This document shows, piece after piece, positions 9,721 through 63,235 of a stretch of DNA of 64,000 nucleotides. A model generated the notes under the pieces. That model had not been told where the DNA came from. It searched no databases and saw only the letters and a list, made by a program, of their open reading frames with translations. Positions within the stretch are counted from its first letter, which is position 1; every line of letters begins with the position of its first letter. Source of the stretch: an uncultured delta proteobacterium (GTDB taxonomy: Bacteria; Desulfobacterota; GWC2-55-46); contig CAVSHY010000014.1 of the NCBI GenBank assembly GCA_963727865.1, forward strand, positions 38,236 to 102,235, read 5' to 3'. The translations under genes were made by a program, and so were the position numbers.

Positions 9721-10750
9721 GGCAAGGGCCGAAGGAGTTAGGGCGGCAGAGAGCGGCGGGGGCCGCGTTCCAGTCATCCTCTCCGGCGACATCGGGGGAA
9801 CAAAGACCTACCTCGGACTCTTCACGCTCAAAGACGCCCGCCCCGTGCCCTTGAGAGAGGCCTCGTTCACAAACAGCCAATTCCATGGACCCCTTGAAGT
9901 GATAGAGGAGTTCCTTAAGAAAGACAGCGCGCGGAAGATAGATTCCGCCGCCTTCGGCGTCGCGGGACCTGTCGCCGATGGCCGTTCAAAGATGACAAAC
10001 CTCCCATGGGTGGTTGACTCAGCCGAGATAGCCGGGAGGCTCGGAATAAAAAAGGCCGGGGTTATAAACGACCTCGTGGCAACGGCGTGGGGGGTCGATC
10101 TCCTTACGGAGGAGGACATTCTTACCTTGCAGGAAGGAAACCCCGAGCCCGGGAACGCGGCCCTGATCGCCGCTGGCACCGGGCTCGGCGAGGCTCTTCT
10201 TTACTGGGACGGCTCATCGCTCATACCTGTAGCCTCGGAAGCCGGGCACGCCGACTTCGCCCCCCGTGATCCCCTCGAAATTGAACTCCTCCGTTATCTT
10301 ATCGGCCTCTACGGACACGTAAGCTATGAACGGGTCTTGTCCGGGCGCGGGCTTGAGGATATTTATAATTTCTTTAAGGATAAAAGCGGCGGGGCCGAAC
10401 CGGGATATTTAAAAAAAAGGTTTAAGGAAGAAGGCGTGGCGCCTGTCGTCTCCGATGAGGCGATGAACGGCGCCGATAATAACTGCAAGCGGGCCCTTTC
10501 TCTTTTCCTCTCCATCTACGGCGCCGAGGCGGGTAACCTCGCTCTAAGGAGCTTATCCGCCGGCGGGCTTTATGTGGGCGGCGGGATCGCGGTGAGGATA
10601 TTGGAAGCCTTCAAGGAGAAAGACGTTTTCATCGGTTCGTTCCTTAAAAAGGGACGCCTTAAAGATTTTCTCTCCCGCGTACCGGTGCGCGTCATACTTA
10701 ACGATAAGACAGGGCTCCTCGGCGCCGCGCGTTACGCCGCGAGGCTCTGA
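9710..10750 (+). CDS. glk: glucokinase
   Basis: ATG at 9710 overlaps the zwf stop; [10 protein letters not shown] matches the Glk-family ATP-binding motif (E. coli VGDVGGTNAR). Confidence 0.8.
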
Positions 10751-11018
10751 CAGGTTGTTGGAAAAACAGTATTCTGGAGGAAACTTTCTGTAGAAAGGTT
10801 TCCCCCAGACCCCTTTCAAAGATTTTTAGCCGGAACCAAAAGTTTTTGGAGAGAGTTTGAGGTCCGTGCGGACGGCAATTTAACTCTTGGACGCTTACCC
10901 GTCACGTACGTTTTTGCTGAAACCTATGCTAAACAATTAGCCGTGCGCAGCACTTTTTACAAAAAGATTCTCTCAAAACACTTTTTCAACACCTGCCACG
11001 AAGCACGGGACAGGAAAA

Positions 11019-12323: not shown

Positions 12324-12980
12324 CTACTTTGCAGCGTTCTTCGGAGAAACATGGCACCGCTTGCAGTCGGCGAGCGGGAAAGCGATCTTGTTATGACACC
12401 TGCCGCACCACTGGCCGTTTACGATCCCCACCATCGACATATTATTCGCCCCCCTCTGCGGGATGAATATGTTGGGATGGCAAACCTCGCACTTGAGCCA
12501 GAATGTGTGCATCTCGTGCGGGTAGATGACGTCATCGACGAAGTCGCCCTTCGCGAGGATAAGGACATCCATCTTAAGCGGAGGCATCTCGTCGTCGTTC
12601 GGGTCAAGCGAGAACTTCGGGGCGATGCGGTTTTCCCTGACTGATTTCGCCCAGTCTACGAGCCCGAACTTGTCCTTCGGGAGGCTTGACACGGTTATAG
12701 CCTGGGGATGCCACCCGTGCCCTTTGGTATACGCGAAGCTCGGCGGTCTGTTCGGGTCGCCGACTCCGGCGGGATGACCGGCGGTATCGAGATAAATGAC
12801 GCTCGATGGGTCTGTCGGGTCGAGTTTAGGCGCTTCCTTCCTGGGGGCTTCTTCTTTGGCCTTCGGCGCCGCTGCGGCAACGGCGGGGTTCATGTATCCC
12901 CCGACGGCAAACCCGAGAAAGCCCAGGAGTACGGAGAAGAAGGCGGCCTTCAAGAGGCTGCGTTTTGAAGATGCTTTCAT
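12324..12980 (-). CDS. cytochrome c7-like triheme cytochrome with long low-complexity N-terminal extension
   Basis: 218 aa; signal peptide, Ala/Pro/Lys-rich linker, then YPHEMH + CEVCH, CGRCH, CKRCH. Confidence 0.8.
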   Translation of the reverse strand: MKASSKRSLLKAAFFSVLLGFLGFAVGGYMNPAVAAAAPKAKEEAPRKEAPKLDPTDPSSVIYLDTAGHPAGVGDPNRPPSFAYTKGHGWHPQAITVSSLPKDKFGLVDWAKSVRENRIAPKFSLDPNDDEMPPLKMDVLILAKGDFVDDVIYPHEMHTFWLKCEVCHPNIFIPQRGANNMSMVGIVNGQWCGRCHNKIAFPLADCKRCHVSPKNAAK

Positions 12981-13016
12981 TATATCCTCCTTTTTTCTAA
13001 ACTGAAATTCGTCTCT

Positions 13017-13391
13017 TTAATTTTGATTGGTTGGAGCATTAGGTTTGTCACCCTTGTATGAATGACACCTTTCGCAGTAGAGCGGTTCCCACGCGATAAG
13101 GCCGTTATGGCATTTCCCGCAATACTCGCCGTTCATGATCTTGGTCATGTTGATGTCGTTGGCGCCTTTCTTAATAATAAAGATGTCCTCGTGGCATACC
13201 TTGCATTTGAACCTGATCCTGTGGAACCAGTGTGGAAAGACGACAGGGTTCACACCGGCCTTTTGCATACTCTCCGACTTGCTGTTAAGGACAATGTCCG
13301 CGTATTCTGCCTGGCTTGTATTTACTGCTATCAAGCCGGCAAGAATACCCATACAAGTCAGGAGGAGAAACCAGAAGCTCGCTTTCTTCAT
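13017..13391 (-). CDS. triheme cytochrome c7 (PpcA-like) family
   Basis: 124 aa; signal peptide; FPHWFH + CKVCH, CGKCH, CERCH. Confidence 0.8.
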   Translation of the reverse strand: MKKASFWFLLLTCMGILAGLIAVNTSQAEYADIVLNSKSESMQKAGVNPVVFPHWFHRIRFKCKVCHEDIFIIKKGANDINMTKIMNGEYCGKCHNGLIAWEPLYCERCHSYKGDKPNAPTNQN

Positions 13392-13687
13392 CGATTTGCC
13401 TCCTTTATTTTTGTTTCCCGACTATTTAATTGTGCGGTGATATTAGTGCCAATTATAGCTCTTTTTACATGGTGACTGTCAAGCTAAAAATTAACTAACA
13501 ATTATTTTTTATAAATAAAAGTCTTTTTGCCGCCCTTTTAAGCCCGGCACGGTAAAATAAACATATGGTGTAATTTTACTTTTTCCGTGTTTTTCTTAAA
13601 TAAGAACCGGGCGCGAGTTCACTCCTTAATTAACGCCAGAAAAATGGAATTGTCCGGTCTTTAACTTTATAGTATTATATATACTTA
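13392..13687. promoter_or_regulatory. AT-rich divergent intergenic region between cytochrome c7 gene (-) and lptF (+)
   Basis: ~300 bp at roughly 30% GC in a 60% GC genome, flanked by divergently oriented genes; no specific promoter boxes asserted. Confidence 0.4.
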
Positions 13688-14881
13688 ATGACAAGAATTT
13701 TAAACAGATATATTTTAAAAGAAACAGCCATCCCATTCCTTCTGAGCATTTCTGTCCTCTCGGTAACCGCGCTCTTGACAAAAATAATAAAGCTCATAGA
13801 GCTCGTCGTGACCAGGGGGGCGGGTCTCGCTTTCGTAGCCTGGTTTATCCTCTCCGTAATGGCGTCGTTCCTCATCTACATTATCCCTATCTCATTTCTC
13901 ATAGGCGTGCTCGCCGCTTTTACGAGATTGAGCTCGGACAGCGAAATAACGGCGATGAAGGCCTCCGGCCTCTCCCTCTTCCGCATCATGAGGCCGATAC
14001 TTTTTTTCGCCGTCTTCGTTTATATGATGAACCTTGCCTTTACCCTCTATATCTTCCCGTGGGGGAACATGAAGATGAAAACCCTTCTCCTCGATACCGC
14101 CAAGACCCGGCTCGTGGCGGGGATAGAGGAGAAGGTTTTTTACGACCGCTTCAAAGGCGCTGTGCTCTATGTGGACCATATTTCAGAGGACGGCGAACTG
14201 GAGGGGATATACATATCCGAGGAAGGCGGGACTGAACCCGGAAAGGAAGGGCATGGGAGCGGCGCGAACATATTTTTCGCCCGCAAAGGGGTCTTCGTGC
14301 CGTCCAATGAGGGATCCGCCGTTTACCTCAAACTCTATGACGGCACTGTCCACAGAAAGGCCGAGGATAAAGACGCGTCCCCGGGAGGCGAGGGGGCCTA
14401 TTATATCGCCCGGTTTTCAACTTATGTGATTGAGATGAGGCTGCCGGGGGTTGATCCCTCAAGCATTATGGGAAAAAGCGACAGGGAGCTTTACATAAAC
14501 GAGCTTCTGGAGAAGATAAAGGCGTTTAAATCGAGGGGTGAAGACGCGCGCCAGCTCTTGATCGAGCTCCACAAGCGGTTTGCCCTTCCGGCCTCTGTCT
14601 TCGTCTTTTTGTTCCTCGGCGTGCCTCTCGGCATACAGAAGGTCCGGGCCCAGAGGCTTACGGGATTCAGCGTCTCCCTCGCGGTTGTTCTTATTTATTA
14701 TGTGTTTTTAACGGCTTTTGAAACGCTCGGTAAAAACGGGGTATTAAGTCCCCCCCTCTCGGCGTGGGGGCCGGATATCTTTCTCGGCGCCGTGGGCCTT
14801 TACATATTTTATATGACCGCGGAGGACGCGCCCATTAACCCGATACCCAGGCTCAGGGGCCTGTTGCGTTACGGCAAATAA
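13688..14881 (+). CDS. lptF: LPS export ABC permease LptF (YjgP/YjgQ family)
   Basis: 397 aa; MTRILNRYILKE N-terminus, six TM segments with periplasmic insert, directly followed by a paralog. Confidence 0.8.
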   Translation: MTRILNRYILKETAIPFLLSISVLSVTALLTKIIKLIELVVTRGAGLAFVAWFILSVMASFLIYIIPISFLIGVLAAFTRLSSDSEITAMKASGLSLFRIMRPILFFAVFVYMMNLAFTLYIFPWGNMKMKTLLLDTAKTRLVAGIEEKVFYDRFKGAVLYVDHISEDGELEGIYISEEGGTEPGKEGHGSGANIFFARKGVFVPSNEGSAVYLKLYDGTVHRKAEDKDASPGGEGAYYIARFSTYVIEMRLPGVDPSSIMGKSDRELYINELLEKIKAFKSRGEDARQLLIELHKRFALPASVFVFLFLGVPLGIQKVRAQRLTGFSVSLAVVLIYYVFLTAFETLGKNGVLSPPLSAWGPDIFLGAVGLYIFYMTAEDAPINPIPRLRGLLRYGK

Positions 14882-25810: not shown

Positions 25811-26078
25811 CGGGGATATTTATGGGGGAAACTTTCTGGTTTTTTAAGGATATATTTAATCAAGCGCGGTTACAATCTTATGATTTTTTAAACGATAGGA
25901 GCTTGATTTACACGCGCTGAAAATCTCCCCCCGGACCCCCTTCAAAACATTTGGAAGATTAAGCGCGGCAAGCCGCGGGGAGTCTCAAGAAGTCTGAAAA
26001 GTATTGATAACCCTATGGAGCCGGTGTAGTATAAAAGACCGAAAGGGGATATCTATAGTATTACATGGAGATATTCAG

Positions 26079-27959
26079 ATGGGAGTAAAAAAGATAGGCG
26101 AACTCCTCGTGGAATCGGCTCTTATAACAGAGGAACAGCTCGAAGAGACCCTTAAAGAGAGCAGGCTTAATAAGGGCACGAGGATAGGCGAGATAATCGT
26201 TAAAAAAGGGTATGCCACTGAAATTGATATAGCCCAGACCCTGGCTTTCCAGTTAAAGATACCTTTTCTGGACATGTCCACGGCCACGGTCGACCCGGAG
26301 GCCGTAAACCTCGTAAGCGAAAAACTTGCCAAAAAATACCTTGTGCTCCCCATTTACTTCGATAAAAAGATACTGAAGATAGCGATGGTGGACCCCATGA
26401 ACCTTAACGCCATAGACGATCTCAGGGTGACGACCCGTCTCGACGTCCAGCCTTGCGTCGCCACGCTCTCCGATGTTACCTCGGCGATAAGAAGGCATTA
26501 TCACATCAATGAGCCCCTTGAAGAGCTTATGGTCGACCTTAAAAAGGATAAGCTTATCGAGGTCGTCCGCGATCCGGAAGCGAACCCGGATATTTCGGAC
26601 CATGTAAGAAAAAGCACAACCCCGCCTATAATAAAGATGGTCGACTCCATCATCATTCACGGGGTTGATAACGGGGCGAGCGACATCCACCTTGAGCCGC
26701 AGGAGAGGGCCGTAAAGCTCAGGATCAGGGTCGACGGGATCATGAGGGAGACGATGCAGCTTCCCAAATGGGTACAGGGGCCGGTAACATCGAGGATAAA
26801 GCTCATGACCGGGATGGATATCACCGAAAGAAGGGTATCGCAGGACGGAAGGATGAGGATAAGGATAGGGGATAAGAGCGTCGATATGAGGGTCTCCACG
26901 CTTCCCACCCAGTACGGCGAGAAGATCGTCATAAGGATCCTTGACCCGAAGTCCTCTCTCCTTGACCTTGAGTCAATCGGGCTCTTCAAGGACGACCTCG
27001 ATCTCATCATCGACCTTATAGAAAGGCCCCAGGGCGTTGTCCTTGTCACGGGCCCGACCGGGAGCGGCAAGACCTCGATGCTCTATGCCATGATAAGGCG
27101 GATAAAAAAAGAGGCTATAAACATCGTTACCATAGAAGACCCGATAGAGTATGAGCTGAACGACGTAAGCCAGGTCGCCGTGAACGAAAAGACCGGGCTT
27201 ACATTCTCATACACGCTTCGCTCCGTGCTGCGTCAGGACCCGGATGTCATAATGGTAGGGGAGATGAGGGATACCGAAACCGCCATAATCGCTTATCAGG
27301 CCTCAATGACCGGGCACCTGGTCTTTTCAACCCTTCATACAAACGACGCGGTCTCTTCGGTAATCAGGCTCAAGAATATCGGCATACCGAGTTACATGAT
27401 AGCGAGCGCGCTTAACGGCATCGTAGCCCAGAGGCTTGTAAGAAAGATATGCCCGAACTGCAAGGAAGAATATACGCCCGGGGATTCCGAGCTTAAGAGG
27501 GCGGGGCTCGTCCGGCGGGGGAAAGAGAAATTTTTCCGAGGCACAGGGTGCAAAACCTGCAACAACAGCGGATATTCCGGCCGTTTAGGCGTTTTCGAGG
27601 TCTTAAAGATAAACAGTACGCTAAAAAACCTTATCTCCGCCGACGCGGCGGAAGAGAAGCTTGTAAACGCCGCGAAGGCCTCGGGGATTAGGTCTTTGAA
27701 GGATGACGGATTAAGAAAGGCTGAGGCGGGACTGACTACGATAGAAGAACTCGCGAGGGTAGTTTACCTTTCAAGGGAAGATGACCATAAAGAAGGCGTT
27801 TGTCCGAACTGCATGAAGGCTGTAACAACCGGGGTAGACCAATGCCCGCACTGCGGGCAGTTCATTCTTAAAAACTGCCGGTCCTGCGGTAAAGTAAGGC
27901 ATCCGGATTGGGTGATATGCCCGTTCTGCTCGGCCCGGTTTGATTACGAATTGCCGTAA
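26079..27959 (+). CDS. MshE/GspE-like type II/IV secretion ATPase with extra C-terminal double zinc-ribbon tail
   Basis: N-terminal tandem MshEN-like motifs (IGELLVESALITEEQLEETL, RIGEIIVKKGYATEIDIAQTLAFQ). Walker A GPTGSGKT. The standard tetracysteine site is CPNC..CKTC. An additional ~70-aa tail CPNC-CPHC-CRSC-CPFC follows. No pilus or T2SS partner genes lie nearby. Confidence 0.85.
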   Translation: MGVKKIGELLVESALITEEQLEETLKESRLNKGTRIGEIIVKKGYATEIDIAQTLAFQLKIPFLDMSTATVDPEAVNLVSEKLAKKYLVLPIYFDKKILKIAMVDPMNLNAIDDLRVTTRLDVQPCVATLSDVTSAIRRHYHINEPLEELMVDLKKDKLIEVVRDPEANPDISDHVRKSTTPPIIKMVDSIIIHGVDNGASDIHLEPQERAVKLRIRVDGIMRETMQLPKWVQGPVTSRIKLMTGMDITERRVSQDGRMRIRIGDKSVDMRVSTLPTQYGEKIVIRILDPKSSLLDLESIGLFKDDLDLIIDLIERPQGVVLVTGPTGSGKTSMLYAMIRRIKKEAINIVTIEDPIEYELNDVSQVAVNEKTGLTFSYTLRSVLRQDPDVIMVGEMRDTETAIIAYQASMTGHLVFSTLHTNDAVSSVIRLKNIGIPSYMIASALNGIVAQRLVRKICPNCKEEYTPGDSELKRAGLVRRGKEKFFRGTGCKTCNNSGYSGRLGVFEVLKINSTLKNLISADAAEEKLVNAAKASGIRSLKDDGLRKAEAGLTTIEELARVVYLSREDDHKEGVCPNCMKAVTTGVDQCPHCGQFILKNCRSCGKVRHPDWVICPFCSARFDYELP

Positions 27960-30816: not shown

Positions 30817-31027
30817 AAATGCATGCGAGCGCCCTGCCCGCTGCTTTCAGCGGGGTCAAGCGAGCGAATAGAACTTTTAAAGTCCTACGCGAAACGCCGC
30901 TGATTTTCAGGTTCTCCATAAAGGACTCTGAAAAAACTTACATTTGGAAGATTCCCCGCAGCTTGCCGCGGGGAGCTTCAAATGCCGCGCCTTCGAAATG
31001 TGATCGCGCCGGATTTCTCCGATTATA

Positions 31028-44284: not shown

Positions 44285-44520
44285 TTTGAAGCTCCCCGCA
44301 GCTTGCTGCGCTTAATCTTCCAAATGTAAGTTTTTTCAGAGTCCTTTATGGAGAACCTGAAAATAAGCGGCGTTTCGCGAAGGACGTTAAAAATATCCTT
44401 CATGGGGCGCCTGAAAATGAGAGACGTCTCGCGTAGGACTTTAAAAATTCTATTCGCTCGCTTGACCCTGCTGCAAGCAGCGGGCATGGCGCTCGCGTTG
44501 CATTTTCAATAACGATTAAA
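44285..44520 (-). repeat. repeat family A copy (inverted)
   Basis: Reverse complement of the 45368-45600 arrangement; the six-frame ORF 44251-44487 inside it is judged spurious. Confidence 0.8.
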
Positions 44521-45367: not shown

Positions 45368-45600
45368 AAAATGCAACGCGAACGCCCTGCCCGCCGCAAG
45401 CAGCGGGATCAAGCGAGCGAATAGAATTTTTGAAGTCCTACGCGAGACGTCTCTAATTTTCAGGCGCCCCATGAAGGATATTTTTAACGTCCTTTGCGAA
45501 ACGCCGCTTATTGTCAGGTTCTCCATAAAGGACTCTGAAAAAACTTACATTTGGAAGCTTCCCCGCAGCAAGCTGCGGGGAAGCTTCCAAATTTTTGACT
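45368..45600 (+). repeat. repeat family A copy (full modular set)
   Basis: Modules A, B, C and D in order; the best reference copy. Confidence 0.8.
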
Positions 45601-47434: not shown

Positions 47435-48184
47435 TTAGTGATCTATAGTCCGCTCCATCTTGACCAGCTCGGCGGCGATGAAGTCGTTCAACGCCTCCTG
47501 GTCATCCTGCTCCACCGAGGTAAACATTATGCCATAACCGCAGAATATTATCTTGCTCAAAAGCTCAAACGGGAACCAGCGCACGATGCCGGTTATCCGT
47601 ACAACCTTTGGTCTTTGGGGAAGGGAGAACATGAGGTGTATTACGGCCCCCTTTATAAGCTCCTCTTTGGTGTGGAGGAAAGCCCCGCCCTCGCTCAGGT
47701 TTATTATGACCCCTGACTTCGTCTCCTCCCCGTACGTGAAGTCCACCGGGATCGAAATCGGGACCCGCTCACTGAGGGTCCTGCTGGCGCGTTTATCGAA
47801 AAAGAGGAGCCTGTTGACGCGGAAGATTATCTGCTCCGGGGAAAGGTCCTTTGACATGAAGCCAGTCGCCCCGAGGTTCTTAAGGCTCTCAAGGACGTGA
47901 TTCGGCTCGTACACCCCGGTTATGGCGAGCACCGGGAACCTGTCACTGAAGCCGTTCTCACCGATCCACTTCAGAACCCCGAAACCGTCGATATGCGGCA
48001 TCTGGAGGTCGAGGATCAGAAGGTCGATTTTTCCCGCGTCCTCTTTTATCCTGGCTATGCAGTCGTCGCCGTCTTTCACGAGCATCACCCCGTGGCCGGC
48101 CTCGGTGAGGATGTCGGAGAGTTTGATCCTGAAAAAGAGGCTGTCGTCCGCGACAACGATATTTTTCGGGTCATTTGTGATCAT
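47435..48184 (-). CDS. response regulator with C-terminal PilZ (c-di-GMP-binding) domain
   Basis: REC domain (VVADD.., ILDLQMPHIDG) plus PilZ motifs RASRTLSER (RxxxR) and NLSEGG (D/NxSxGG). Confidence 0.8.
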   Translation of the reverse strand: MITNDPKNIVVADDSLFFRIKLSDILTEAGHGVMLVKDGDDCIARIKEDAGKIDLLILDLQMPHIDGFGVLKWIGENGFSDRFPVLAITGVYEPNHVLESLKNLGATGFMSKDLSPEQIIFRVNRLLFFDKRASRTLSERVPISIPVDFTYGEETKSGVIINLSEGGAFLHTKEELIKGAVIHLMFSLPQRPKVVRITGIVRWFPFELLSKIIFCGYGIMFTSVEQDDQEALNDFIAAELVKMERTIDH

Positions 48185-57819: not shown

Positions 57820-58165
57820 CGGAAGGGATTTCAAAGAAGCGCGGAGCTTAAAAATATCGTAAAGGGACAGGGTCTTTATAGACCCCGTCCCTTTCTTTTT
57901 ATTGATTGAAGGACACTCATCCACGCCTCAATTATCCATATCCTGGATTAAAGCCCGATCCGATTAGAGTCTTAAAACGGGCCAGACCTGCCCAGGGCTA
58001 CGCATAAATGTAAGGAGAATGAAAAAAAGTCATAGCCCCTCCGTAAAAAGCGCAAATAAATCAAGTGGTTAATGTCTGGCACGATGATTGCGTTTCACAT
58101 AAACGGGGCCTGGCGTGGGAGGAATAATTTACACACACGGCTCTTTAACAGGAAAGGAGGCGCGA

Positions 58166-58330
58166 ATGAACCAGGAAGTCTGCAAGAAATGTGACGCCAA
58201 TAATTCTTCTGTCTGCGACCATTGCGAGGCGATATACGCTCTTGAGGACGTTCAAACGGACTTCGACCCTGATGAACCCGATCCTAAGACCCGTTGTAAC
58301 GGCTGCGTCTGCGCCGGGGAGAAAAAATGA
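58166..58330 (+). CDS. small Cys-rich protein (7 Cys in 54 aa)
   Basis: Strong RBS AAAGGAGG; CKKC..CDHC ... CNGCVC; ATGA-coupled to a 46-aa amphipathic peptide gene (58327-58467). Confidence 0.45.
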   Translation: MNQEVCKKCDANNSSVCDHCEAIYALEDVQTDFDPDEPDPKTRCNGCVCAGEKK

Positions 58331-58467
58331 AAAAGATGGAAGAAGAGATAGGAATCTTTGCCGAGAGGTTGCAGTCCGCCGATTTTTTTAAAGCCGCGGC
58401 CACCCTCGCGGCGCTTGCGGCGATGACGGTCTACCAGGCAAAGATTATCGCGGCGATATTCATGTAA
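58327..58467 (+). CDS. small hydrophobic/amphipathic peptide, translationally coupled to upstream Cys-rich gene
   Basis: MKKMEEEIGIFAERLQSADFFKAAATLAALAAMTVYQAKIIAAIFM; start overlaps the upstream stop. Confidence 0.35.
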   Translation: MKKMEEEIGIFAERLQSADFFKAAATLAALAAMTVYQAKIIAAIFM

Positions 58468-58510: not shown

Positions 58511-58640
58511 CGGGCTGTGAAAATGCAACGCGAGACGCCTCTCCTTTTCTGGCGCCCCATAAAGGACTCTGAAAAAACTTACATTTGGAAGATTCCCGGC
58601 AGCTTTTCTGCGGGGAGCTTCAATCTTTTCCCCGATCTGC
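58511..58640 (+). repeat. repeat family A copy
   Basis: Modules A, C and D. Confidence 0.75.
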
Positions 58641-58683: not shown

Positions 58684-60261
58684 ATGGGCCTCTGGAACGC
58701 TTACTTTCTGGCGAAATTCTACTTTTATTACGAAGGATACATCCGTCTCGACGGGTCTTTGAACCTCGTCTTCGCCGCGTTCCTCATATTACCACTGCCG
58801 GGAAAGTTGAGATCAAGCAGGCCCCTCGCGGCCTTGAAATTCCTTCTCGCCGCGGCCTTCGCCGCCGCCCTCCTGTGGCATGACTCGTGGCTCAGGCCCC
58901 CTCTTGAGTCCTTCTCATTTCTTGAAGAAGAGGGTATGCCTTCAAGGCGGTACATCTACAGCTTTCTTCTCGGGTACTTCAATCTCTGGGACATCATTGT
59001 CCTGGCATTCATCCTCGCCGCGTGCGTGGCGGCAAAAAAGTTCAGGGTGCTCATAGGCCCGTTTGTCGTGATCGCGCTCGTCTTCATCATCCCTTTCAAC
59101 CGGGTAGGGCGGGGAGACGGGGGAAAGATGGACAGGGCGCTCGGCGGCTTTTACGCGAACGAGTCGAAAAGGGCCGTGCGCTTCGAGAGTGTTAATAACC
59201 CCGATTTCGACATCGTGATCCTCCATGTCTGTTCGCTCTCGTGGGACGACCTTAAAGAGTCGGGCGCGCGGAATGAATGGGGGGAGAGTTTCTTCAAGAA
59301 GTTCGATTATCTTTTCACGGCGTTCAATTCCGCGACCACCTACAGCGGCCCAGCGGTTATCCGCCTCATGAGGTCGAACTGCGGGCAGGCCCGGCACGGG
59401 GACCTTTATAACGAGGCCCCGTTGGACTGCTACCTCTTCGACAGCCTCGGTAACGCGGGGTTTGACGTCAACTTCGCCCTGAACCATAACGGCGAGTACG
59501 GGGGCTTCGTGAAGGACGCGAGGCGGCTGGGGCACATGAAGTCCCCTCTCATGAGCCAGGAGGGGCTCACCGCCGGGTATAATATGTTCGACGACTCGCC
59601 GGTCTACGGCGATTACCCGGTGCTTGAGAGATGGTGGAAGGAGAGGGTGGCTAAAGCCGCTTCTCCGGGCGTTAAGCCCGCCGTCCTGTATTATAATACC
59701 GTAACGCTCCATGACGGCACGCACAGGGCCGGGGAAAAGAACTGGTGGAACCGGGACAGGCGCGCGCAATACAGAGAACGCCTCGCGGGGCTCCTGAATG
59801 ACATGACAAGGTTTATCGGGCTGCTTGAATCCTCGGGCAGGAACGTCGTGGTCGTTTTTGTCCCTGAGCACGGGTTCGCCCTCAACGGGAGCAGGATCCA
59901 GGCCCCCGGGCTCCGGGATATACCTTTGCCGGAGATAACGCTTGTCCCCGTGGGGGTCAAGTTCATAGGGAAGAAGTATAACGAAGTTCCGCCGGACCGG
60001 AACGGGGGGGGTGGGCAGGGCGGGCGCTCGCAGAAGGTCATCTCCAGGCCCGCGAGTTATTTCGCCCTCTCATTCATGCTCTCCGAGTTCCTCGCCGAAA
60101 GCCCGTTCCAGGCGCGGGCAAAGAGCGAAGACTTCGTAAAAAGCCTGCCTGAGACCGGGTTCGTCTCCGGGACCCAGGGCGTGGAGATAATCAAAGATGG
60201 AAACGCGTACTATTTATATGGTAAAGATAAGACGTGGATAAAACTCCCGGCAAAGGACTGA
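58684..60261 (+). CDS. bcsG: BcsG-family phosphoethanolamine transferase (cellulose biosynthesis protein G homolog), orphan
   Basis: N-terminus WNAYFLAKF..LNLVFAAFLILPLP, ILHVCSLSWDDL (catalytic Ser block), NSATTYSGPAVIRLMRSNCGQ, VPEHGFALNGSRIQAPGLRDIPLPEITLVPVGVKF. All closely parallel E. coli BcsG. No bcsA/bcsB lie in the window. Confidence 0.8.
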   Translation: MGLWNAYFLAKFYFYYEGYIRLDGSLNLVFAAFLILPLPGKLRSSRPLAALKFLLAAAFAAALLWHDSWLRPPLESFSFLEEEGMPSRRYIYSFLLGYFNLWDIIVLAFILAACVAAKKFRVLIGPFVVIALVFIIPFNRVGRGDGGKMDRALGGFYANESKRAVRFESVNNPDFDIVILHVCSLSWDDLKESGARNEWGESFFKKFDYLFTAFNSATTYSGPAVIRLMRSNCGQARHGDLYNEAPLDCYLFDSLGNAGFDVNFALNHNGEYGGFVKDARRLGHMKSPLMSQEGLTAGYNMFDDSPVYGDYPVLERWWKERVAKAASPGVKPAVLYYNTVTLHDGTHRAGEKNWWNRDRRAQYRERLAGLLNDMTRFIGLLESSGRNVVVVFVPEHGFALNGSRIQAPGLRDIPLPEITLVPVGVKFIGKKYNEVPPDRNGGGGQGGRSQKVISRPASYFALSFMLSEFLAESPFQARAKSEDFVKSLPETGFVSGTQGVEIIKDGNAYYLYGKDKTWIKLPAKD

Positions 60262-60265
60262 AACC

Positions 60266-61081
60266 GTGAAGAACGAACCCCTGACAAAAACAAGAATTTC
60301 CGGTCCTGGGAAGCTGACGCTCCTCTTTCTCGCGGCTTTCGCGTTTTCTTTTTTTGACGCGCGCGCGGGAAGCGCCTTTGAACTCGTGGGCCTGCCCGGC
60401 TCCACCTGGGGCACGGTCACGCATGACGCGGACGGCATAAGCGGCGCCGGGACGATGGGCTTTGTGAACCAGGGCATAGACTGGACGAAACTGCCCGGCG
60501 GCGTCACTCTTAATACCTTCGCGGAATACAGGTGGAGGCTCCGCTCAAAGAACAAGGACTTCTACAATACCGAAGGCCCGGCCCTGGGGGTCGAACTCAG
60601 GAAGTCGTATTTCCGGCTCGGCGTCGACTACTACTGGGAACATTTCACGGAGATCAACGCGACCTCGGAAAACAAGGAAGTCTACCTCGCCTGGTATTAC
60701 GACTGGGACCTGGGCAAGTTTTTCGCTTCGCCTTATTTCATGGGGCTTCCGGGCTCGACCTGGGGCATCCTCACCTATGACATGAACGGCATCAACGGCT
60801 CCGGGGCCCTCGGTTACGTCAATCAGGGGATAGACTGGGTAAAGCTCCCCGGGGACGTCGTCTTCAATACATTCGTGGAGTACAGGCTCCGCGCCCGCGA
60901 GAAGAACACCGCCTTCTACGACGCCGAGGGCCCTGCCGCGGGCATAGAGTTCAGGAAATGGTTCCTGAGGGCAGGGGCCGATTATTACTGGGAACGCTTC
61001 ACCGGGCTCCATAAGGACTCGAACCACATGCAGTACTATGTCAGCTGGTATTACTCGTGGGATCTCTTGAGGCTTAAGTGA
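60266..61081 (+). CDS. secreted protein built from two ~130-aa tandem repeats
   Basis: Signal peptide; each half reads GLPGSTWG..GI.G.G..G.VNQGIDW.KLPG.V..NTF.EYR.R.R.KN..FY..EGPA.G.E.RK...R.G.DYYWE.FT; alternating aromatic pattern suggests beta-rich, possibly outer-membrane. Confidence 0.45.
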   Translation: MKNEPLTKTRISGPGKLTLLFLAAFAFSFFDARAGSAFELVGLPGSTWGTVTHDADGISGAGTMGFVNQGIDWTKLPGGVTLNTFAEYRWRLRSKNKDFYNTEGPALGVELRKSYFRLGVDYYWEHFTEINATSENKEVYLAWYYDWDLGKFFASPYFMGLPGSTWGILTYDMNGINGSGALGYVNQGIDWVKLPGDVVFNTFVEYRLRAREKNTAFYDAEGPAAGIEFRKWFLRAGADYYWERFTGLHKDSNHMQYYVSWYYSWDLLRLK

Positions 61082-61114
61082 GGGGAAGAGTTTTTAAGAT
61101 GAGGAAGTAGAAAA

Positions 61115-61586
61115 TGGAATACCGCGACACTGCGTCATTTGGAAAACGCCAAGAGTTTATCGCTATAGCCGAGTTATTGCGGCAAGGGTTCGACGATATT
61201 TGACCTTGGTGGATGATCAACAAATCGACTGTGTTGTCAGACAGTTGGTAAACAAGCGTCTGGTCTATTTGGACATCCAAATCAAAGCCAGATCATCTAA
61301 AGCAAGACGAAAAAATGCTGGAACATTTGCCGGTATGGAAATTCGAGAGCCCAGAAAAAATTTCTTCTTCATTTTTTATTCAGAGCAGGCTCGTTGCTAC
61401 TGGTCTCGGCCTTCCTCCATCCTGACACTTATAAAAGAGGCTAGTGAAAACAAAGCAGGAAAGAATAAAGGAAAGTACAGCATTGTATTTACCACCTATA
61501 GCCTTAAGACCGGTGAGGTTAGTCCTCGTCCACATTTTTCCAAATACCAAGATAATTTTCAATTACTGAGGGACATTACATTATAA
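61115..61586 (+). pseudogene. low-GC (~42%) foreign gene, frameshifted; PD-(D/E)xK-like nuclease candidate
   Basis: MEYRDTASFGKRQEFIAIAELLRQGFDDI* then the next frame continues LTLVDDQQIDCVV..YLDIQIKARSS..; GC is far below the window average. Confidence 0.4.
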
Positions 61587-61694
61587 AAGCTTAGCAATGG
61601 CACAAAGATACGTCCACCTGATGCCGTCGCATAAAAATACTAGTGGCAGGACGCTCGGGTTAGAGATTTAACGGGGTTGTTTTCAAAAAATCCC

Positions 61695-61895
61695 CATGCG
61701 TATGGTGAACAGCGCGTAAGAATGGAGGAAGGGCGAGCGAGCCGGGGCAGCGCGAGCGAAGCGATCTTAAGCGGCGAGTGAGGAGGGCTGGAGGCAGTAG
61801 CGCCAGAGAATCTCTATCCCGAAGCGCACGGTTAGCGCGCAAAAGGCTCTTAAGCAGGGGGCGGATACATACTGGATTGCGCGTTGTTCACCCTC
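61695..61895. mobile_element. ~200-bp MITE-like element related to repeat family C
   Basis: Terminal inverted repeats TGGTGAACAGCGCG ... CGCGTTGTTCACC; interior GCGAGCCGGGGCAG..GGCTGGAGGCAGTAGCGC matches the middle unit at 1490-1600. Confidence 0.55.
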
Positions 61896-62867: not shown

Positions 62868-63235
62868 TGAAAATGCAACGCGAGCGCCCTGCCCGCTGCA
62901 GCGGGGAGCTTCAAAAACCTTTTTTGGGGGGAACTTTCTGTTTTTTTAGCGGATATATGCTGACTCAATAGCTTTTAAATTCCGTGTCATTTATAAACAT
63001 TGGGCCGCCGGTTAATTAACCCGGCTCACGCGAAGGACTCCAAAAAAAAGATGGTTTATGCGCTGAAAAATTTCCCCCAGACCCCCTTCAAAGATTTTTA
63101 AAGTCCTGCGCGAGACCCCGCTCTTTTTCAGGCGCCCCATGAAGGATATTTTTAACGTCCTTCGCAAAACGCCGCTTATTTTCAGGTTCTCCATAAAGGA
63201 CTCTGAAAAAACTTACATTTGGAAGTTTTCCGCGG
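62868..63235 (+). repeat. two adjacent repeat family A copies/modules
   Basis: Module A at 62868-62940; modules E, B and C at 63040-63235; six-frame ORF 63012-63194 judged spurious. Confidence 0.75.

Follow-up and report, generated by a model that had tools for sequence, protein, structure and literature searches.

A free-standing bcsG gene paired with a predicted duplicated outer-membrane beta-barrel in an uncultured deltaproteobacterium: a possible detached part of a cellulose secretion system

The bcsG gene and its product

The window analysed in this work is a stretch of 64,000 nt from an uncultured deltaproteobacterium (Desulfobacterota, GWC2-55-46; assembly GCA_963727865.1, contig CAVSHY010000014.1, positions 38,236 to 102,235), and its subject is a pair of adjacent forward-strand genes. 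The upstream gene, bcsG (58684..60261), encodes a predicted inner-membrane phosphoethanolamine (pEtN) transferase of 525 aa, assigned by PF11658, TIGR03368, the alignment with PDB 9b8v and the active-site residues. The downstream gene (60266..61081) encodes a duplicated-repeat protein of 271 aa, a predicted 12-stranded outer-membrane beta-barrel, assigned by AlphaFold2, Foldseek, its protein family, its linkage to bcs genes and the existence of forms fused to tetratricopeptide repeats (TPR). The transfer of pEtN from phosphatidylethanolamine to cellulose is established for BcsG of E. coli.

A first-pass annotation, made from the nucleotide letters, had recognized the open reading frame (ORF) 58684-60261 as a full-length BcsG, and this was confirmed by the family models. 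The product matched Pfam PF11658 (CBP_BcsG) with an E-value of 3.7e-133 and 445 bits (cut-off 24.8), and it scored 436 bits on NCBIfam TIGR03368, above the equivalog cut-off of 410.2. The alignment with E. coli BcsG (PDB 9b8v_B) consisted of two blocks (E 6e-81), in which residues 3-135 of the membrane part correspond to residues 23-149, and residues 150-522 of the catalytic part to residues 207-558. Hydrophobic segments were located at approximately 20-38, 46-66, 91-125, and 112-142. A membrane domain of several helices forms the N-terminal part, and a very short linker connects it to the catalytic domain, which is periplasmic and has the alkaline-phosphatase fold. The residue correspondences were counted along the 9b8v alignment and by the location of motifs. 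The Zn ligands are C183 (C243 in E. coli), which lies within CSLSWDDL, and E395/H396 (E442/H443), and the nucleophile is S221 (S278), which lies within NSATTYSGPA and is adjoined by Y220 (Y277). Furthermore, H343 and R411 correspond to H396 and R458, and C233/C249 to the disulfide cysteines C290/C306. All the motifs quoted in the first-pass annotation are present, but CSLSW had been mislabelled there as the nucleophile block, because it holds the Zn-ligand Cys and the nucleophilic Ser is found in NSATTYSGPA. Since the catalytic set (in E. coli numbering the Zn ligands Cys243, Glu442, and His443, with Ser278, His396, and Arg458) is complete, the window BcsG looks catalytically competent. It adds one more member to a known family.

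The architecture of the window protein is shared over its whole length with the BcsG (YhjU) that belongs to the type II Bcs system in E. coli and Salmonella (PDB 6PCZ, 5OLT, 9B8V, 9FMV), as are the Zn ligands, the Ser nucleophile, the His, the Arg, and the disulfide cysteines. However, the enterobacterial enzyme's unstructured N-linker, which is about 47 aa long, is almost absent in the window protein. The distance between the end of the last hydrophobic segment and the Zn-ligand Cys is 41 aa, compared with roughly 88 aa in E. coli by our own estimate. The genetic context differs as well. The enterobacterial gene is usually part of bcsEFG together with bcsA/bcsB, whereas the window bcsG has no neighbouring bcsA, bcsE, or bcsF and is paired with the barrel gene, which enterobacteria do not have. 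None of the genes for BcsA, BcsB, or BcsZ was detected in the window by tblastn with the proteins of a related operon (E<1e-5). Moreover, the contig of a 99.3% identical relative (L005, GCA_041643115.1), which has the same gene arrangement, carries no bcs genes in the approximately 3 kb that it extends past the window end. The earlier statement that no cellulose synthase lies nearby therefore stands for the window and for this extension.

The predicted downstream barrel protein

The barrel gene starts with GTG 4 nt past the bcsG stop, and its AAGGA Shine-Dalgarno sequence is located inside the 3' end of bcsG. The protein begins with a signal peptide of residues 1-34 (signal helix 16-30), which ends in ARA before a G (...FFDARA, then GS), and continues with two repeats at residues ~41-154 and ~159-271. 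The secreted, two-repeat nature of the protein had been proposed from the start and was upheld, although each repeat is about 115 aa long and not 130 aa. In a local self-alignment, 110 residues were matched with a score of 389, compared with 30 +/- 5 for shuffled sequences. No family was matched by the protein in the Pfam and NCBIfam scans. Among 49 aligned members of its family there was no consistent Pfam match and none had PF05420, and the family profile had no match among PDB chains.

The structure predicted by AlphaFold2 with the family alignment (mean predicted local distance difference test score, pLDDT, 91.3; predicted TM-score, pTM, 0.78) contains 12 strands, each of 11-17 residues, in a 6+6 arrangement, preceded by a single N-terminal helix that corresponds to the signal peptide. 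In a Foldseek search of the PDB with this model, all 50 of the 50 matches listed were outer-membrane barrels, nearly all with a probability of at least 0.98, so that the initial guess of a beta-barrel was well founded. The matches listed include 12-stranded autotransporter, intimin/invasin, FapF, LpxR, and KdgM-type porins, as well as the polysaccharide exporter PgaA. Among these, the top match after size normalisation was the KdgM-type oligogalacturonate porin VhGalP (PDB 8XUA; TM 0.42/0.50). The strands show an alternation of conserved charged or polar residues, such as E87/R89/R91/R93, and aromatic or aliphatic residues, such as F85/Y88/W90/L92, which is the pattern expected of sides that face the lumen and the lipid, respectively. 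The aromatic clusters WYYDWD and DYYWE are located at strand ends. In addition, Q69/Q187, E87/E205, R89, R93/R207, and R211, which face the lumen by prediction, are strongly conserved in the family. The partner of BcsG is thus predicted with high confidence to be a signal-peptide-bearing outer-membrane-type beta protein of 12 strands, built by internal duplication. From the same model, the 12 strands would be expected to form a closed barrel.

Porins of the KdgM/NanC type are 12-stranded barrels that are able to pass linear oligosaccharides. Their resemblance to the window protein is one of fold (TM 0.42-0.50), with no sequence match. Unlike the barrel protein, they are uptake porins that have no internal duplication and are unlinked to synthases.

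Distribution and gene neighbourhoods of the barrel family

The barrel family comprised 107 clusters at 90% identity. At 50% identity there were 192 representatives with E<=1e-3, of which 54 had E<=1e-30. All hosts are uncultured and belong to Nitrospirota, Nitrospinota, 'Deltaproteobacteria'/Thermodesulfobacteriota, Elusimicrobia, and Bdellovibrionota. For the survey of neighbourhoods, the family alignment was searched against one genome per species (GTDB), which gave 24 loci, and BcsA, BcsB, BcsZ, BcsG, and the barrel were mapped onto them by tblastn. A bcsA-type gene was found no more than 10 kb from the barrel gene in 20 of the 24 loci, and three of the other four loci end at contig edges. 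In 18 of the 24 loci, bcsG adjoined the barrel gene or was close to it, and this is the co-occurrence in other genomes that the first-pass annotation had suggested looking for.

Several layouts were distinguished (the loci are denoted L001 and so on). The order bcsA-bcsB-bcsZ-bcsG-barrel occurs in L004 and L018, and the order bcsA-bcsG-barrel without bcsB in L003, L009, L011, L012, and L015, as well as in L025-27, in which the barrel is of the single-repeat type. The bcsG-barrel pair is convergent with bcsA-B-Z in L008, L014, L017, and L019, and the barrel gene alone is convergent with bcsA-B-Z-cyclase-bcsG in L020-22. In L013, bcsA-B-Z is followed by the barrel gene and there is no bcsG in the locus. 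In L010, the order is barrel-bcsA-B-Z with no bcsG seen, and the contig ends after bcsZ. The barrel gene stands downstream of bcsZ within a bcs operon in L004, L013, L018, L029, and L035, but not in the window. None of the partner-containing operons annotated with Pfam (L001-L005, L031, L033) encodes BcsC (PF05420), and the related bcsA-B-Z operon of L036, which has no barrel gene, carries a canonical BcsC with TPR and BCSC_C in the same slot.

In the bcsA-bcsG-barrel operons of three Nitrospirota metagenome-assembled genomes (MAGs), the diacylglycerol kinase gene dgkA (PF01219) was identified directly 3' of the single-repeat barrel gene (L025:10360-10773; L026:10318-10752; L027:~10372-10812). 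Diacylglycerol is the by-product of pEtN transfer from phosphatidylethanolamine. The position of dgkA is consistent with the recycling of diacylglycerol released by BcsG and speaks for the usual BcsG reaction in these systems. The diacylglycerol by-product of BcsG has been raised as an unexplored point (review PMC8892547).

Some further features of these neighbourhoods were observed. Complete genes encoding a signal peptide and one repeat of ~115 aa, with six predicted strands, occur in a single copy per locus (L025-L028, L030; P0093-P0107), and many matches of ~120-160 aa in the profile search are of this kind. Having six strands, such a protein would need homo-oligomerisation in order to form a closed barrel, and if the single-repeat proteins do oligomerise, they would be a surviving intermediate stage in the evolution of the barrel by duplication. 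The synthase of the Nitrospirota operons without bcsB (L003, L009, L011, L012, L015, L025-L027) is a BcsA-like protein of ~760-836 aa with glycosyltransferase family 2 (GT2), Cellulose_synt, and PilZ domains, and its identity to the BcsA of the A-B-Z type amounts to only ~31%. In proteobacteria, BcsB is considered essential for BcsA activity. In nine loci (L008, L014, L017, L018, L019, L020, L021, L022, and L029; e.g. L020:11043-11894, minus strand), a neighbour of bcsG or bcsA encodes a protein of ~283 aa that combines a class III adenylate/guanylate cyclase domain (PF00211) with a membrane helix at the C-terminus; the window has no such gene. The protein may act as a regulatory subunit, in a role like that of BcsE/BcsF, and no published description of such a bcs-linked protein was found. 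In L030 (8315-9862), a PMT_2 (GT-C-like) membrane protein occupies the bcsG slot between bcsA and the single-repeat barrel gene, and a PMT_2 gene is also located nearby in L001. Between the barrel gene and bcsZ, L017 (10780-12453, minus strand) and L019 (10981-12621, minus strand) encode a secreted protein that has a glycerophosphodiester phosphodiesterase domain, in L019 together with an alkaline phosphatase (12759-13856, minus strand).

TPR-fused relatives and comparison with BcsC

BcsC is defined by a TPR scaffold that ends in an outer-membrane barrel, with its gene placed after bcsZ. The barrel family also occurs in this form. In L029, the order is bcsA-B-Z-[TPR::barrel]-bcsG, and the ORF of 813 aa between bcsZ and bcsG consists of a signal peptide, a TPR region (~57-547, several Pfam TPR families), and the C-terminal barrel. 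The short contig of L035 holds the end of bcsZ, the gene for a TPR::barrel protein of 982 aa (P0234), and the start of bcsG, in this order. By an exhaustive profile search, about 18 representative clusters of 688-1459 aa were found that carry the barrel at the extreme C-terminus. Among 10 of these long fusions that were scanned, nine were TPR-rich and none matched PF05420. The TPR part of the fusion matched the BcsC of L036 in a pairwise comparison (E 1e-14) and the BcsC model NF008520 below the threshold. In the window protein, the barrel of these fusions stands free.

The possibility that the barrel is a diverged BcsC barrel was considered and ruled out on sequence, by the absence of PF05420, the lack of a PDB match to the profile, and an hhalign probability of 0.3% for the barrel family against the canonical BcsC barrel, which means no detectable homology. 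BcsC was described as a TPR protein with a 16-stranded outer-membrane cellulose exporter (PDB 6TZK; review PMC8892547). With BcsC (PF05420 BCSC_C, NF008520) the barrel protein shares the predicted outer-membrane location. The operon position of BcsC, after bcsZ and next to bcsG, is that of the barrel in the relatives of the window protein, and the fused relatives have the same overall design of TPR followed by barrel, with weakly similar TPR regions. On the other hand, the BcsC barrel has 16 strands and the window barrel 12 (AlphaFold2), which derive from a duplicated 6-strand unit, and the long N-terminal periplasmic TPR region of BcsC has no equivalent in the window protein, which consists of signal peptide and barrel. 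The logic of a TPR scaffold plus a barrel is also shared with PgaA (PDB 4Y25) and AlgE/AlgK. In AlgK/AlgE, scaffold and barrel are separate polypeptides, which resembles the stand-alone barrel of the window. However, the barrels of PgaA and AlgE have 16-18 strands and no sequence relationship to the 12-stranded protein.

Free-standing pairs and the short BcsG linker

Apart from the window, a free-standing bcsG-barrel pair with long flanks was found only in the Nitrospinae MAG GCA_016208975.1 on a contig of 2.2 Mb (L001). A search for BcsA homologues identified bcsA-bcsB-GH8 (a glycoside hydrolase family 8 gene), followed by a transposase gene, on another contig of the same genome (L031). Split bcs clusters of this kind therefore exist.

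By comparing the linker lengths, a proxy of 36-44 aa was obtained for almost all barrel-linked BcsGs, including the free-standing ones of the window (41) and L001 (40), and long linkers occur only in L017 and L019. Short-linker BcsGs are encoded inside bcs operons in L003, L004, L009, L011, L012, L014, L015, L018, and L020-22. Because the short linker is found in both operon-embedded and free-standing BcsGs, it is a lineage trait and no mark of a non-cellulose role.

BcsGs with very short N-linkers, encoded apart from bcs genes, were reported from Elusimicrobiota and 'Nitrospirinae' (bioRxiv 10.64898/2026.09.23.753746). Li and Romling proposed different substrates for these free-standing enzymes and conceded that bcs clusters may lie elsewhere in the incomplete genomes; their preprint makes no mention of a barrel partner (bioRxiv 10.64898/2026.09.23.753746). 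The phenomenon is the same as that in the window, and Elusimicrobiota and 'Nitrospirinae' also carry the barrel family. In contrast to the proposal of another substrate, we found this type of BcsG within bcs operons and, in one of the MAGs, together with a bcsABZ at a distance. These operon-embedded enzymes and this one genome argue for split clusters against the hypothesis of a non-cellulose substrate. In full-text literature searches, the barrel family was not found described as a Bcs component.

Interpretation of the bcsG-barrel pair

We hypothesize, with moderate confidence, that the bcsG-barrel pair is a detached part of a cellulose (bcs) secretion system, the synthase of which is encoded elsewhere in the genome, and that the barrel replaces the pore of BcsC. 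From the gene neighbourhood that recurs across phyla, the TPR fusions in the bcsC position, and the absence of BcsC from these operons, we infer that the barrel is the outer-membrane terminus of the system, most likely its exit pore, and that bcsA is located elsewhere in this genome. The first-pass annotation had regarded a bcsAB operon just beyond the window as the sign of a split bcs cluster; no contiguous bcsAB was found in the ~3 kb covered by L005, but the weaker form of that reading, a cluster split over a greater distance, is better supported. In such a system, bcsA, with or without bcsB and bcsZ, would be encoded elsewhere. The inner-membrane-anchored BcsG would take pEtN from phosphatidylethanolamine onto Ser221 and, to judge from its conserved active site, would pass it to the glucan chain crossing the periplasm. 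The barrel protein would be exported by means of its signal peptide and inserted in the outer membrane as two homologous 6-strand halves, where it would serve as the exit pore or outer-membrane terminus of the polymer, the role of the 16-stranded BcsC barrel in E. coli.

Several points weigh against this interpretation. The window, 64 kb of a contig of 130,634 bp, has no bcsA, and the gene is only presumed to occur in this genome. To our knowledge, every characterised porin of synthase-dependent exopolysaccharide secretion is wider, with 16-18 strands. Instead of lining a channel, the conserved Arg and Glu residues of the lumen could be joined in a closed network of salt bridges, and together with the conserved Gln residues they would also suit a site for binding or catalysis. 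All the evidence presented here is computational. A barrel with neither bcsG nor bcsA nearby was found in L024, and a 67%-identical barrel, also without nearby bcsG or bcsA, in L034 (GCA_975903975.1, 1586-4582), so that the role of the barrel may not be strictly tied to cellulose. The locus of L034 is syntenic with the window in the order PEGA (minus strand), DUF6899 (plus strand), barrel, and response regulator, but both bcsG and the small ORFs are missing from it, which implies a gain or loss of the bcsG segment at this position. Finally, experiments in Salmonella suggest that very short BcsG N-linkers impair the transfer of pEtN to cellulose (bioRxiv 10.64898/2026.09.23.753746).

The explanations that compete with a detached cellulose system differ in which part of it they give up. 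The pair could act independently of BcsA on a non-cellulose acceptor, such as another exopolysaccharide, a periplasmic glucan, lipopolysaccharide, or a protein, which we consider unlikely. This would agree with the lack of a bcs synthase in the 64 kb and the ~3 kb beyond, with the 41-aa linker class, which according to the preprint is inefficient on cellulose in Salmonella and is not co-localised with bcs genes (bioRxiv 10.64898/2026.09.23.753746), and with the PMT_2-type protein that replaces BcsG in L030 and the PMT_2 gene near the pair in L001, which hint that the modifying enzyme is flexible. However, short-linker BcsG and barrel occur together inside bcsA(BZ) operons in most barrel genomes, and the free-standing case that is testable, GCA_016208975.1, has bcsABZ elsewhere. 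The window BcsG is scored as an equivalog by TIGR03368, and the flanks of the pair in the window contain neither another synthase nor a polysaccharide locus. The suggestion of the first-pass annotation that the pair decorates a different glycan thus found no support, given the linkage of the partner to bcsA in 20 of 24 loci, the TPR fusions in the bcsC slot, the short-linker BcsGs of bcs operons, and the split case of GCA_016208975.1.

A rather unlikely alternative keeps the cellulose system and denies the barrel the function of an export channel, making it an anchor or receptor for pEtN-cellulose, a lipid enzyme or phospholipid handler that supports the phosphatidylethanolamine demand of BcsG, or a scaffold dock. 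The best fold matches do include 12-stranded enzymes (OmpLA, LpxR) and anchors (the beta domains of autotransporters and intimin), the strong conservation of Q69/Q187, E87/E205, R89, R93/R207, and R211 suits a site beyond a passive pore, and the barrel gene adjoins bcsG in most loci and dgkA in three, a theme of lipid turnover. Nevertheless, L013 combines the barrel with bcsABZ and has no bcsG in the locus, the TPR-barrel fusions after bcsZ mirror the export logic of BcsC, PgaA, and AlgK-AlgE, and these operons contain no other outer-membrane candidate, although diderm cells need an exit route. It is highly improbable that bcsG and the barrel gene are unrelated and adjacent by chance, with no shared function. 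The barrel without bcsG at the syntenic site of L034 (67% identical) and the lone barrel of L024 would fit such an accident, but the adjacency recurs in 18 of the 24 species representatives and in at least four phyla, and in the window the gap is 4 nt and the ribosome-binding site lies inside bcsG.

The barrel family looks undescribed, and the locus itself looks ordinary. We class this unannotated family as a variant outer-membrane component of synthase-dependent exopolysaccharide secretion. A bolder proposal, which we offer tentatively and as possible rather than probable, is that the 271-aa protein is the first representative of an undescribed family of pores through which polysaccharides leave across the outer membrane. 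Its 12-stranded barrel would have arisen by tandem duplication of a 6-strand half-barrel, and the single-repeat genes of some Nitrospirota would encode halves that assemble as homodimers. Free-standing or TPR-fused, it would replace the BcsC barrel in Nitrospirota, Nitrospinota, Desulfobacterota-like bacteria, Elusimicrobiota, and Bdellovibrionota, and with a linker-less BcsG, and in some Nitrospirota without BcsB, it would complete a minimal three-tier pEtN-cellulose machine of synthase, modifier, and pore, plus dgkA, far outside Enterobacteriaceae.

If the pair is a detached part of a cellulose system, pEtN-cellulose is to be expected beyond enterobacteria, in uncultured Nitrospirota and Nitrospinota (the phyla of nitrite oxidisers) and in groundwater deltaproteobacteria. 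Cellulose export across the outer membrane in systems without BcsC is regarded as unresolved (review PMC8892547). For this acknowledged open question in Gram-negative bacteria the barrel family is a concrete candidate, and it is available in three informative architectures, namely half-barrel, duplicated barrel, and TPR-fused barrel.

Surroundings of the pair in the window

The large ORFs of the window encode, by Pfam, housekeeping proteins, namely transketolase, transaldolase/phosphoglucose isomerase, 6-phosphogluconate dehydrogenase, glucose-6-phosphate dehydrogenase, glucokinase, LptF/G, and a sensor kinase, and in addition RNase J, MshE, HemA, ThiC, and cobalamin biosynthesis proteins. Two small forward-strand ORFs precede bcsG, as had been noticed at first reading, and both were recognized in the sequence and by the gene call in L005. 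The first (58166..58330) encodes a Cys-rich protein of 54 aa (CxxC-x7-CxxC ... CxxCxC) and has a strong Shine-Dalgarno sequence, AGGAAAGGAGG. The second (58327..58467) encodes 46 aa with a hydrophobic C-terminal half, and its start overlaps the stop of the first in ATGA. Neither of them matched a Pfam or NCBIfam family, including the Pfam families of BcsE and BcsF, and among 34 loci homologues were found only in the 99%-identical relative. The two ORFs appear to be lineage-specific. They show zero substitutions between the window and L005 and are thus uninformative on selection. A role as BcsF- or BcsR-like subunits was considered and set aside, as they match no family and, in the other loci of this set, no homologue of theirs precedes bcsG or bcsA. 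A small Cys-rich ORF accompanies both free-standing pairs, the one of 54 aa upstream in the window and one of 56 aa downstream in L001 (10864-11034, minus strand). Both contain CxxC pairs with no evident sequence similarity, which may be a coincidence.

A GC-rich hairpin with a 15-bp stem and T-runs on both strands (57861..57894, seen in the sequence) lies between the DUF6899 gene block and the four-ORF unit of the 54-aa ORF, the 46-aa ORF, bcsG, and the barrel gene. It is likely the upstream boundary of the transcription unit, in which the 54-aa ORF is apparently the first gene. No riboswitch, for example for cyclic diguanylate (c-di-GMP), was detected upstream of bcsG by Rfam at gathering thresholds. 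The sole Rfam match in the window was a cobalamin riboswitch (RF00174, 43211-43396, minus strand, 122 bits, E 4e-30) near a minus-strand block of cob, dimethylbenzimidazole (DMB) phosphoribosyltransferase, and thiC-family genes.

A copy of a dispersed intergenic repeat (58520..58640, forward strand), recognized by an exact 30-mer at five window sites and by alignment, occupies most of the space that separates the 46-aa ORF from bcsG and is probably not a functional part of the bcsG-barrel system. The 30-mer, AAGGACTCTGAAAAAACTTACATTTGGAAG, is present in five copies in the 64 kb, where 0 are expected (30921-30950, plus; 44317-44346, minus; 45528-45557, plus; 58562-58591, plus; 63196-63225, plus), and among 38 fetched loci it was found only in the 99% relative L005. 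The whole element measures ~100-160 nt and consists of one or two tandem units of ~54 nt, the 30-mer, and then a hairpin of CCCCGCAGC...GCTGCGGGG. It has no Rfam match, and it looks like an element of the repetitive extragenic palindrome or miniature inverted-repeat transposable element (REP/MITE) kind or a small RNA.

Directly after the barrel stop, the window has 793 nt (61084-61877) where L005 has 176 nt, an indel of ~620 nt. The region contains an ORF of 128 aa with no Pfam match (61200-61586) and inverted-repeat arms of 22 nt (61405-61426 and 61716-61737), and it may be a mobile-element remnant. Over 5 kb, the window differs from L005 by 31 substitutions, of which bcsG and the barrel gene account for 23 (11 nonsynonymous and 12 synonymous) and each flanking gene for 0-1. 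This concentration of substitutions suggests a locally faster or relaxed evolution of the two genes.

The usual activator of BcsA is c-di-GMP. Two proteins related to this messenger are encoded in the window, a response regulator with a PilZ domain (47435-48184, minus strand) and an MshE-type ATPase with an MshEN domain (26004-27959, plus strand), which hints that c-di-GMP signalling operates in the organism.

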